Part shown: in pieces, positions 26,855-29,424 of the stretch
How positions within the stretch are numbered: position 1 is the first letter of the stretch
How the letters are laid out: every line of letters begins with the position of its first letter
Source of the DNA: Escherichia coli
GTDB taxonomy: Bacteria; Pseudomonadota; Gammaproteobacteria; Enterobacterales; Enterobacteriaceae
NCBI RefSeq assembly: GCF_002854065.1
Contig: NZ_CP024152.1
Direction: 5' to 3' (one strand)
Length of the DNA stretch: 64,000 nucleotides
The notes under the pieces: model-generated
Told to the model about the DNA's origin: nothing
Database searches by the model: none
What the model saw: only the letters and a program-made list of their open reading frames with translations
Made by a program: the position numbers and the translations under genes

Positions 26855-27031
26855 ATGAATCTGGTAGACGCCTTTGTCAAAAAAGTAATATCCGGTCCAT
26901 ATGAAGAATATGGAAAATGGTGGATAGATGTTGAATACATTTCATGGGGTGTTCCCGGGAAAACAAGACTGATGTTTGAGTCAAAGGAGCAGGCACTGGA
27001 AGTTAAAGAAGGGTACAAATTTTTAACGTGA
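26855..27031 (+). CDS. Hypothetical small protein (58 aa)
   Basis: ATG at 26855 preceded by AAAAGGAAAA; followed by a hairpin at 27047-27077. Confidence 0.35.
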   Translation: MNLVDAFVKKVISGPYEEYGKWWIDVEYISWGVPGKTRLMFESKEQALEVKEGYKFLT

Positions 27032-27095
27032 GATCTCTTTTTGTTAAAGGGCAGGAAGCGGTAACTCCCTGCCCTTAGTTACGTTTCCAGGCTTA

Positions 27096-27203
27096 TCAGT
27101 CGACAAGTTCCCGGATCAGTTCCAGAACAGCAATCAGCGCGTTTGCAACGGCAACTACTGCCCTGAGAACGATGATTAACAGATTAATCATCCGCTTCTC
27201 CAT
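27096..27203 (-). CDS. Candidate type I toxin, DinQ/TisB-like hydrophobic peptide (35 aa, or 31 aa from the ATG at 27191)
   Basis: Manual translation of the minus strand gives MEKRMINLLIIVLRAVVAVANALIAVLELIRELVD; GGAG sits 6 nt before the internal ATG; single predicted TM helix with a charged C-terminus; not in the 60-aa ORF track. Confidence 0.4.
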   Translation of the reverse strand: MEKRMINLLIIVLRAVVAVANALIAVLELIRELVD

Positions 27204-27449
27204 CACTGGAGGAAATCACCGTTGCTTACTCTTACATTGCCTGTCACAACGGCACTTTCAGTGTTAGTTGAAAAGAGACTTCCTCCTGCCAGAGCACTGA
27301 ACACAGCACCACCTGTTTGTTCAGCCAGGACTTAAAATCTTGCATCCATAGTCCCGATGGATATCACGGCAGAAGTGTCGCCAGACAGAGCTAACCTGCG
27401 GATTATAAGGATGGTTGCTATCAAATGAACAGCTCGCTATTATAAGAAC

Positions 27450-27537
27450 GTTAGTTGAAAAGAGATTTCCTCCGGTCAGGGCCACCCACTCTGTAACGGA
27501 ACAGTAAAAAAACCGACCTCACCAGTCGGTTTTTTTA
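27450..27537 (+). ncRNA. Candidate antisense sRNA (putative antitoxin) for the 27096-27203 peptide gene
   Basis: Sigma70-like -35 TTGCTA (27415-27420) and -10 TATTAT (27438-27443); intrinsic terminator hairpin plus T7 at 27511-27536. The transcript carries GTTAGTTGAAAAGAGATTTCCTCC, a near-exact copy of 27262-27285, so it would be complementary to the opposite-strand mRNA leader. Confidence 0.3.
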
Positions 27538-27689
27538 CATCTGTTGTTTCTCAAAATCCGCCCAACATGCCCGTCACACCGGGGAAACTCATGCTCTGAA
27601 TCAGAACCAACCATCTCAACTTTGCCGTCTCCTGAAAAAACTGGCACATTCAGTTCGATAACTACCCATAAATACAGAGAGAAAATCCG

Positions 27690-27941
27690 ATGTCAGAAAA
27701 GTGGAGTAAAGAATTCGACTCTTGCTTTCAGGTGGGGAGCATAGAAGAAATTGCAGATGCTCTCGAGAAACGCAGCGGAAGCGAGGAAAATGCGTTAGCC
27801 ATGCTGGCAATGACAGCCTTCACACTCATGACCCGACGTGGTATCTGCGAAATGCAGAACGTGGCCCCCGATGGCAAAGGCATTCGGCTGGAGCTAATCG
27901 GCTTCAGGGAAAATGAAACAATACCGGATACGCTTCATTGA
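27690..27941 (+). CDS. Hypothetical protein (83 aa)
   Basis: ORF with a weak RBS; ends just before the bidirectional terminator at 27981-28003. Confidence 0.35.
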   Translation: MSEKWSKEFDSCFQVGSIEEIADALEKRSGSEENALAMLAMTAFTLMTRRGICEMQNVAPDGKGIRLELIGFRENETIPDTLH

Positions 27942-27980
27942 AGAAGAAAGGGCGCAATGAGGTCAGCCTTCGCAACAAAG

Positions 27981-28003
27981 CGGCGGCAGAAAACCTGCCG
28001 CCG
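27981..28003. terminator. Bidirectional hairpin terminator shared by pndA and the 27690-27941 gene
   Basis: CGGCGGCAG-AAAAC-CTGCCGCCG perfect stem with T-rich flanks on both strands. Confidence 0.55.
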
Positions 28004-28012
28004 TGTTGCCCG

Positions 28013-28165
28013 TTAACGTTTAACTTCGTAGGCTAACGTTGCCACAAGCACTGTGTTTCCCTGCTGGAGCCGGAGTCCGCAAAGCGAATCCCTCACCATC
28101 CAGACAAAACACAGAATCGTCACACAGATGACGATTAACATCATTAAAAACGTTCGCTGTGGCAT
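28013..28165 (-). CDS. pndA: PndA, Hok-family type I toxin (50 aa)
   Basis: Manual translation: MPQRTFLMMLIVICVTILCFVWMVRDSLCGLRLQQGNTVLVATLAYEVKR, with the Hok-family pattern of a TM helix followed by SLC and AYE. Below the ORF-track size cutoff. Confidence 0.8.
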   Translation of the reverse strand: MPQRTFLMMLIVICVTILCFVWMVRDSLCGLRLQQGNTVLVATLAYEVKR

Positions 28166-28223
28166 CATAGCCCCTCCATTGCCTTACGGCGGTTATCGGG
28201 CTACTATAATGTTGTCTAGGCAT
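28020..28223 (-). CDS. pndC: PndC, Mok-like overlapping reading frame enabling pndA translation
   Basis: Overlapping frame (ORF 28020-28358) with an ATG at 28223; hok/mok/sok architecture. Confidence 0.5.
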   Translation of the reverse strand: MPRQHYSSPITAVRQWRGYDATANVFNDVNRHLCDDSVFCLDGEGFALRTPAPAGKHSACGNVSLRS

Positions 28224-28280
28224 TACAGTAGAGCCCTTGGTTGATTGATAAAAAAATCTCCAGGGGCTTTCTGCTGTATA
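28217..28280 (+). ncRNA. pndB: PndB, Sok-like antisense RNA (approximate)
   Basis: Plus-strand -10 TATAAT at 28205-28210; the transcript would be antisense to the pndC start region; imperfect hairpin plus U-rich tail near 28230-28280. Confidence 0.4.
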
Positions 28281-28437
28281 TGGTTTAGTTAACAAAGAGA
28301 GCCAGTGTTCCACTGAGCAAAACCAGTAGCTATTCATGCTTACAATTATCTTCTCCATATCTGAAATAACTCAAACAGCCCAATAGAAACATATTGTTAC
28401 ATCTAAGATCTTGAAAAGACCTCTTTGAGAAATCAAT

Positions 28438-29424
28438 ATGAGATCACGGTATGTTGATAGGATAATATATATGAAGAAACTATTGATTCGATTAATACCT
28501 GATGCAATATATGAGGCTCTGGAAAAGACAGCTCTGCATTCTGAACGCTCCCTGGAAGCACAGGCCAGATATATCCTTAGTTGCTCCGTAGATAATGAAA
28601 AACAATTAACTGGTGGTGAACGCTATCAAAGAGAAATAACCGCGCGTCTTAATCAAGCGTTATCAGAAGCTAATGAGGTCATAACAGCCATTAATCTTGT
28701 TCCCGCAAGAATTGCAGAACAATTAGGCCATCATGACGCCATAGAATCCGAAAATTGGTTCACCGGAAATGCTGTTCCTAGCTTTACAGAGCTTGACGAA
28801 TTAAGCGATATCTTTGGATGCTCTCCAGATTGGTTAAAGTTTGGCGAAAATGTACCTTATCCAAAGAGTTCTAAAGGAAGGATAAACTGGAATCGTGGCG
28901 GAGAAAAAGATATCGATGCACTTTTAGAGCCTGACAACAAAGGTCGTAAAGTCTCATCTATTCATATTTTCAGGGTAAATGAATCTGGCAATATACTAAT
29001 ACTGAGAGAATTTGAAAACAGCATAACTACAGATTTTTTCTCAACAAACCTTTACTTATCAGACAAAGAAAAAATAGGACAGGGCGGATTCCACGACCTG
29101 GTCGATTTCCTTGTAATTTTACAATCCCTTTATTTAAAATATATAAATAGCAATCTGTTAGTGAAAAGCTATAACATTAGCCAATATGTACTGGATTCCT
29201 GTTATAAGAGCGGAGAAAAGCACCCCATAACTATATGTAGTGCAGGTGAGACAAGTACCTGGTGGGAAGACATATGGCATGAAGACATGATAGCTCAATC
29301 GAGGAATAATGAGTCCTACTTCTGGGATGGTGACAAACCTCTTATTGATAGCCTTCATAAAGAACTTCAAAAAAATAACAGATTAAAGCCAAACAGTGAG
29401 TTAGATATGCCACTAATTGGTTAA
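28438..29424 (+). CDS. Low-GC hypothetical protein with N-terminal ribbon-helix-helix-like region, paralogous to TraE (328 aa)
   Basis: About 38% GC; Arc/MetJ-like N-terminus (LIPDAIYEALEKTALHSERSLEAQARYIL); shares the SPDWLKFGENVPYP motif with TraE (NPDWLNGHENYPIA). Confidence 0.5.
   Translation: MRSRYVDRIIYMKKLLIRLIPDAIYEALEKTALHSERSLEAQARYILSCSVDNEKQLTGGERYQREITARLNQALSEANEVITAINLVPARIAEQLGHHDAIESENWFTGNAVPSFTELDELSDIFGCSPDWLKFGENVPYPKSSKGRINWNRGGEKDIDALLEPDNKGRKVSSIHIFRVNESGNILILREFENSITTDFFSTNLYLSDKEKIGQGGFHDLVDFLVILQSLYLKYINSNLLVKSYNISQYVLDSCYKSGEKHPITICSAGETSTWWEDIWHEDMIAQSRNNESYFWDGDKPLIDSLHKELQKNNRLKPNSELDMPLIG

Follow-up and report, generated by a model that had tools for sequence, protein, structure and literature searches.

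In the hok/sok family of plasmid killer systems, translation of the toxin is coupled to that of a leader open reading frame (ORF), named mok in hok/sok and pndC in pnd, and in hok/sok the antisense RNA spans the mok translation start. Slow 3′ trimming removes the fbi element from a stable, inert toxin mRNA in hok/sok. In plasmid-carrying cells, a short-lived antisense RNA (PndB in pnd) binds the toxin mRNA and the duplex is degraded; in plasmid-free cells PndB decays first, so that pndC is translated, coupled synthesis of PndA follows and the inner membrane is damaged. In the structural model of hok, the 5′ tac element pairs first with the 3′ fbi, which leaves the full-length mRNA inert, and this pairing of the ends keeps the mRNA both inert and stable; once the 3′ end has been processed, tac pairs with ucb instead, and the mok ribosome site and the antisense target become free (PMC9841398). 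In hok of plasmid R1, toxicity is abolished by all substitutions at tac G4, C5 or U6, which block the open conformation (PMC9841398). For pnd, the pndBCA module was present in 125 of 125 IncI1 sequences examined, the canonical IncI1 module has been shown to mediate post-segregational killing or plasmid stabilisation, and plasmid pJIE512b was cured by neutralising pndBCA alone (PMC5330492). The interval between trbA and pndC is one of the fragments used for plasmid multilocus sequence typing (pMLST), and the trbA–pnd interval is variable through insertion of finQ (PMC2887853).

We analysed one such locus in a 64,000-nt stretch of Escherichia coli plasmid DNA (hereafter, the window). The locus is very probably the pndBCA module of an IncI1-type conjugative plasmid, a type I toxin–antitoxin system of the hok/sok family whose mRNA leader has been replaced. 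The module itself is already known and already annotated in identical public plasmids. Positions 27000–28700 were 100% identical to at least 19 plasmid records among the matches listed by BLAST, and these identical plasmids are conjugative, belong to IncI-gamma/K1 (IncI1-type) and reside in E. coli, Salmonella, Shigella and Citrobacter. Gene order in the window is that of the transfer region of psg_wt5, NZ_CP037994.1 (traE...traY, excA, dqlB, pnd, trbABC, nikBA, ardA, psiAB, ssb), with pnd lying between excA and trbA as in the IncI1 transfer region and flanked by excA, dqlB and trbABC. The two coding frames of the module are the following.

28013..28165, minus strand: pndA, Hok/Gef-family membrane toxin of 50 aa, identified from the ORF listing and Pfam HOK_GEF
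28020..28223, minus strand: pndC, mok-like frame of 67 codons, with its ATG at 28223–28221 and its stop codon ending at 28020

An ORF listing with a minimum of 20 aa contained a minus-strand ORF of 51 aa at 28013..28168, MMPQRTFLMMLIVICVTILCFVWMVRDSLCGLRLQQGNTVLVATLAYEVKR (MMPQRTF...YEVKR). The 50-aa form of PndA begins at the second ATG, at 28165, which is the start annotated in RefSeq and lies 7 nt from a Shine–Dalgarno (SD) sequence, GGAGG, at 28177–28173; the ATG at 28168 is an alternative start yielding the 51-aa product. The preliminary description had recovered this peptide by manual translation and attributed its absence from the ORF track to a 60-aa cut-off, and the cut-off proved to be the sole cause: the ORF at 28013–28165 is present on the minus strand. 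Cut-offs of 60 aa hide type I toxins. The Mok-like frame that had been placed at the ATG at 28223 is likewise real, open to the stop codon ending at 28020; it overlaps pndA in a different frame, and its start lies 5′ of the toxin start. The window and the canonical p9134 module have the same pndC frame, with a single change at codon 2 (Pro versus Leu), and in pESBL this frame is annotated as PndC (PMC4288162). An in-frame upstream ATG at 28337 was considered as a pndC extension unique to the window allele and was discarded, since an in-frame AUG upstream of pndC is found in the canonical allele as well.

The membership of PndA in the Hok family was upheld by the profile comparison that had been set beforehand as its refutation test: the peptide scored 47.4 bits against Pfam HOK_GEF (PF01848; cut-off 22, E = 1.4e-12), the match spanning profile positions 3–42 of 42. 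Scores against two narrower NCBIfam models, the HokA equivalog (68.8 bits, cut-off 89) and the Hok subfamily (44.3 bits, cut-off 73), were both below the curated cut-offs. The identical 50-aa sequence belongs to a public protein cluster named "Protein PndA ... PNDA2_ECOLX" (Swiss-Prot) or "Hok/Gef family protein", and a RefSeq CDS named "Hok/Gef family protein" in psg_wt5 coincides with pndA in its coordinates. At the RNA level, Rfam family RF01794 matches the window at 28163–28380 on the minus strand with 74.9 bits, above the gathering score of 59. It is scarcely conceivable that the small ORF is open merely by chance and belongs to no toxin system, a reading that can appeal to the small size of the ORF and its absence from the 60-aa list and to nothing more, and that is contradicted by the HOK_GEF E-value, the exact match to a named PndA, the Rfam leader above its gathering score, and the conservation and annotation of the ORF in ~1,900 plasmid records.

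The Rfam family itself calls for care. RF01794 is named "sok antitoxin", yet it matches the sense strand of the toxin mRNA and ends at the toxin AUG, and its consensus structure is the tac–ucb form of a hok-type leader, not an antisense RNA; strand calls made from the family name "sok" would be misleading.

A predicted antisense gene and its candidate promoter lie on the opposite strand.

28214..28275 (ends approximate), plus strand: predicted PndB (Sok-like) antisense RNA, identified from its fold and conservation
28179..28210, plus strand: candidate PndB promoter, with −35 TTGCCT at 28179–28184 and −10 TACTAT or TATAAT

In the predicted PndB, the 5′ tail is complementary to both the pndC start and the target loop, and a long hairpin resembling a terminator comes after it. 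The fold of 28214–28284 on the plus strand has a free energy of −31.2 kcal/mol (z = −5.16; 0 of 200 shuffles equally stable), and the region is the same as in canonical pnd loci except for 2 nt. A plus-strand gene with so strong a hairpin facing the pndC start agrees with the earlier suggestion that a Sok-like antisense RNA would run across that start. The −35 TTGCCT is separated by 17 nt from TACTAT (28202–28207) and by 20 nt from TATAAT (28205–28210). The plus-strand TATAAT that had been taken as the −10 is present, but the true −10 may sit 3 nt to its left, at the TACTAT with the 17-nt spacer. The candidate promoter was not reported by a consensus scan with a threshold of at least 4/6 matches per hexamer and 9/12 overall, TTGCCT-17-TACTAT scoring 8/12; its layout corresponds to conserved positions of the Rfam consensus when these are read as the reverse complement, and we infer the promoter from this conservation within the family. 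With either −10, PndB would start at about 28214–28217 and the RNA would cover the pndC start at 28223–28221.

The loop of the antisense-target hairpin, just past the pndC AUG at 28214–28220, is polymorphic among pnd loci, with the alleles CCUAGACAA in the window, CUUCGACAA in p9134 and AUGAACAA in IncK2/Z. The window allele of the target loop, searched as a 70-nt sequence, occurs in 439 PLSDB records, and ~970 records fall in the band of 95–99% identity. Such differences could alter cross-neutralisation between plasmids. According to a published statement, pndB is identical across all IncI1 plasmids, and the polymorphism conflicts with it.

The window allele departs from canonical pnd at the 5′ end of the toxin mRNA. 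The elements of the mRNA outside the coding frames are listed here.

28345..28374, minus strand: candidate sigma-70 promoter for the hybrid toxin mRNA (TTGAGT, 18 nt, GATAAT), a 9/12 consensus match only
28281..28344, minus strand: substitute 5′ leader, in place of the canonical 41-nt tac and 5′ hairpin
28231..28270, minus strand: closed hairpin between ucb / anti-SD AAAGCCCC (28270–28263) and the pndC SD AAGGG (28238–28234)
27981..28003, minus strand: terminator-like 3′ stem-loop directly downstream of the pndA stop codon, an inverted repeat of 10 pairs, 8 of them G–C
27950..27962, minus strand: fbi element CCUCAUUGCGCCC, intact, its 5′ partner missing from the window allele

The extent first proposed for the module, 28013–28290, located it correctly and understated its size, the functional unit running from about 28374 (the candidate promoter) to about 27945 (the 3′ fbi). 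In alignments with p9134, an IncK2/Z plasmid, ETEC-2264 and pC16EC0050-2, homology to canonical pnd ended at 28280, placing the junction at 28280/28281; from 28280 to ~27940 the window differs from the p9134 module at 3 nt, two in the target loop and one in pndA. Most of the ~1,970 plasmids that matched 27960–28400 in a BLAST search aligned no further than 28280. When a 90-nt probe across the junction was used, 103 of 1,931 PLSDB records spanned it and ~1,830 stopped exactly at 28280. The canonical mRNA begins with GGGCGCUUGAGGCUGUAUGCCGAAAGCGUUUUGUGGACGG, which corresponds to position 1 of the RF01794 model, and is preceded by the promoter TTGTTG-16-TAGAAT. Both this native promoter and the initial 41 nt of the pnd mRNA, comprising tac and the 5′ hairpin, have given way to different sequence in the window. 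The substitute leader was found in ~104 PLSDB records and in 102 of 5,426 complete E. coli genomes.

Related plasmids account for the origin of the replacement. ETEC-2264, pRHB15-C22_2, MARGA_4 and pC16EC0050-2 carry tandem copies of the leader, in which the upstream copy is partial, having the substitute promoter and leader and being truncated after ...ATTATAGTAGCC, and the downstream copy is a complete canonical pnd. The substitute region of pC16EC0050-2 is identical to that of the window. The tandem repeats lie 296 bp apart and share an identical 24-nt crossover segment, TATACAGCAGAAAGCCCCTGGAGA. The window allele has the sequence expected of a 296-bp deletion by recombination between tandem leader repeats, and we attribute the leader swap to a deletion between two leader copies that both survive in related plasmids. 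No complete donor locus with the substitute leader was found in PLSDB or among the complete E. coli genomes, and the leader was confined to the IncI1 context. An alignment of the substitute upstream region with the canonical promoter was abandoned as evidence of homology because MAFFT returned two conflicting registers; the octamer GAATAGCT common to the two regions is suggestive and fixes no transcription start. We found no description of a tac-less recombinant pnd allele on a subset of IncI1 plasmids in the searchable literature.

Extra copies of the leader are not limited to these tandem arrangements. Several IncI1 plasmids carry the pnd leader and PndB region a further time in truncated form (in pESBL-EA11 at locus positions 1449–1606; in another plasmid at 1899–2030), and all of these copies have one end in common, ...ATTATAGTAGCC, which lies within the PndB promoter. 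In pESBL-EA11, which has a finQ insertion, a decayed partial leader lies beside trbA in addition to a complete canonical pnd. The shared end points to a recurrent junction for the insertion of accessory genes such as finQ and the ORF found beside pnd in the window, and some of the truncated copies might encode an orphan PndB-like RNA. The accessory ORF of the window is the following.

28438–29424 (RefSeq start 28471), plus strand: ORF of 317/328 aa between pnd and trbA

Its N-terminus resembles a FitA-like ribbon-helix-helix (Pfam, 28.2 bits) with an additional weak helix-turn-helix match. It occupies the site where other IncI1 plasmids have finQ and is unrelated to FinQ; homologues with ~40% identity are common on Klebsiella plasmids. 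We located homologues on plasmids of Providencia, Klebsiella and other E. coli, and in the two loci inspected, on Providencia and E. coli plasmids, no hok-like gene was annotated near the homologue; linkage of this ORF to a hok-like gene is thus not conserved. On the other side of the module, a conserved hypothetical ORF of 83 aa (27690–27941, plus strand) faces the pnd transcript, converging on its 3′ end and stopping ~9 nt past fbi; it had no match in Pfam or NCBIfam. An IncK2/Z plasmid has a different small ORF that overlaps the 3′ end of pndA; it is annotated as "antitoxin", on a basis that is not evident.

We compared the ability of the canonical and window leaders to form the two pairings on which the hok model depends. 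In the minimum free energy (MFE) fold of the full-length canonical mRNA, the 5′ sequence GGGCGC.UGAGG pairs with the fbi element, whereas the corresponding fold of the window hybrid has no 5′–3′ pairing. RNAduplex energies gave the same picture. The canonical 5′ end formed a duplex with fbi of −28.1 kcal/mol (shuffles −20.4 ± 3.4; 6 of 300 as good) and with ucb of −21.9 kcal/mol (shuffles −13.5 ± 3.0; 3 of 300 as good), whereas the values for the window 5′ end were −13.7 kcal/mol with fbi (shuffles −12.5 ± 3.0; 95 of 300 as good) and −11.5 kcal/mol with ucb (shuffles −9.2 ± 2.8; 57 of 300 as good). The tac–fbi pairing of the ends is thus missing from the window allele, its 5′ partner being absent and its duplex at shuffle level, and so is the tac–ucb pairing, the tac-stem positions of the Rfam model contributing nothing to the score of the window. 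RF01794 scored 131.7 bits for the IncI1 canonical leader, 124.9 for IncK2/Z and 74.9 for the window, and the loss of 57 bits relative to IncI1 was confined to the tac-stem part at the 5′ end of the model, which aligns to the window only by way of an 84-nt insertion with non-canonical pairs. The tac-like GGGCUGUUUGAG at 28381–28370 to which this alignment leads was rejected: its duplexes with ucb and fbi do not exceed shuffle level, it overlaps the predicted −35, and it is reached only through the 84-nt insertion. Pairing of GGCUCUCU with AGAAAGCC, a candidate for opening ucb, is possible and no better than in shuffles.

The remainder of the mRNA architecture is conserved. The ucb hairpin and the 3′ stem-loop are identical to those of canonical pnd. 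The ucb–SD hairpin was predicted in all folds and is also part of the Rfam consensus structure; in the hok model it hides the ribosome site of the leader ORF (PMC9841398). By analogy with hok, the 3′ stem-loop would protect the processed mRNA at its 3′ end; destabilising mutations in the equivalent last stem-loop of hok lead to loss of function (PMC9841398). In the MFE fold of the hybrid, fbi pairs with the SD region of pndA, whose probability of being unpaired is 0.04, versus 0.48 in the canonical fold. MFE and partition-function folds of the 3′-truncated mRNA missed the published open tac–ucb form even for the canonical allele, and the 3′-truncated folds were therefore not used to judge activity.

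We propose a model for the hybrid allele, in which pndA, pndC, the PndB gene, ucb, the 3′ hairpin and fbi are intact and essentially as in the canonical module. The hybrid toxin mRNA would be transcribed from the substitute promoter (candidate TTGAGT-18-GATAAT); neither the lock of the ends by tac and fbi nor the activating switch from tac to ucb would be able to form; and the mRNA would stay closed, such that PndA would be poorly activated and PndB would still be made. We give an even chance to the hybrid being an attenuated or silent killer allele that still produces PndB, an expectation based on analogy with hok, because tac is absent here and substitutions in tac abolish the toxicity of R1 hok. 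The term "killer" module, used in the preliminary description, accordingly holds for the parts, toxin, leader frame and antisense RNA all being in place, and is not assured for killing by the window allele, in which tac and the native promoter are replaced.

A somewhat less probable alternative, implied by the preliminary description, is that the window allele is a fully functional killing module like canonical pnd, transcribed from the substitute promoter and with the substitute leader opening the pndC ribosome site in another way. The coding and antisense elements are all intact and a 9/12 promoter-like site lies upstream, as such a module would require, and the allele is found on many widespread plasmids (in E. 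coli, Salmonella, Shigella and Citrobacter). The presence of the hybrid on many successful plasmids with pndA, pndC and PndB intact is also what would be expected of a functional module. The carriers are, however, near-identical, too similar for decay of pndA to accumulate or to inform on selection, and their persistence therefore says little about selection. The complementarity of the leader to fbi and ucb is at shuffle level, the Rfam score is lower by 57 bits, all of them in the tac stem, and point mutations in tac abolish the toxicity of R1 hok (PMC9841398), all of which weigh against full function.

The missing lock could also act in the opposite direction: freed from tac–fbi pairing, the hybrid mRNA might be more translatable rather than less. 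In a deregulated module of this kind, the mRNA would be either bound by PndB and degraded or translated at once, leaving no stable reservoir of toxin message; killing would be weak on this account and not through a closed ribosome site. We regard this reading as improbable. It would be in keeping with an fbi that has no 5′ partner and that pairs with the pndA SD region in the hybrid fold, and with hok mRNA being held inert and stable by the pairing of its ends (PMC9841398). On the other side, the ucb–SD hairpin is still predicted and its opening requires tac in the published model, and the folding predictions are too unreliable to choose.

If the window allele is indeed attenuated or silent, plasmid stability would rest on other systems, among them dqlB–agrB, and attempts at curing that target pnd would have a different outcome. 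Surveys of resistance plasmids commonly score pnd as present or absent, and presence of pndA need not equal a working killer. Tentatively, we suggest that a tac-less pnd allele may be spreading on IncI1 resistance plasmids, having kept PndB and lost the switch that turns on its own toxin, or else having a tac-independent route of activation. If so, a plasmid with the tac-less allele would escape the cost of its own addiction and, given a matching target-loop allele, could neutralise pnd killing by a displaced competitor IncI1 plasmid, which would make it a natural counterpart of the engineered "interference plasmid" (PMC5330492). The window allele is also a natural tac deletion, through which the refolding model of hok mRNA could be tested in another member of the family.

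The second system mentioned above lies next to pnd and has three parts.

27096–27191, minus strand: DqlB peptide of 31 aa, NCBIfam NF041473 "DinQ-like type I toxin DqlB" (67 bits, cut-off 35)
27451–27538, plus strand: AgrB-family small RNA (sRNA), Rfam RF02891 (55.3 bits, gathering score 40)
27263–27295 and 27450–27482: 33-nt direct repeat, 88% identical, giving complementarity between the sRNA and the 5′ untranslated region

It had been suspected that two independent type I systems lie within 1.2 kb here, and this is the case: the second is dqlB–agrB (27096–27538), which is independent of pnd, and both systems are already known. Experiments on pOXA-48 and pOXA-484 have validated the dqlB–agrB pair as an addiction module, and it is reported to occur on 67% of IncI1 plasmids (PMC12365149, PMC12317039). 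A motif scan of the whole window in six frames revealed no further Hok-like peptide, and a whole-window Rfam scan no additional type I RNA families.

Comparison with described systems places the locus closest to pndBCA of the IncI1 and IncB plasmids R483, R64 and R16, with which it shares an identical PndA, the pndC frame, the PndB gene, ucb, the 3′ hairpin and fbi as well as the position between excA and trbA, to which the window adds the ORF of 317/328 aa between pnd and trbA. It differs from them by the 296-bp deletion, through which the promoter and tac have given way to unrelated or very weakly related sequence. The same architecture, a toxin of the Hok/Gef family of ~50 aa with an overlapping leader ORF, is found in hok/sok (parB) of R1 and in srnB and flm of F, which, like the window, have a cis-encoded antisense RNA over the leader-ORF start and a 3′ hairpin with fbi; their primary sequences differ, and the window lacks the pairing of the 5′ and 3′ ends and the tac–ucb switch. 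The neighbouring dqlB–agrB resembles pnd in having a small hydrophobic membrane toxin under the control of an antisense RNA but differs in that its toxin belongs to another family (NF041473) and its sRNA acts in trans through the 33-nt repeat, without overlapping transcription.
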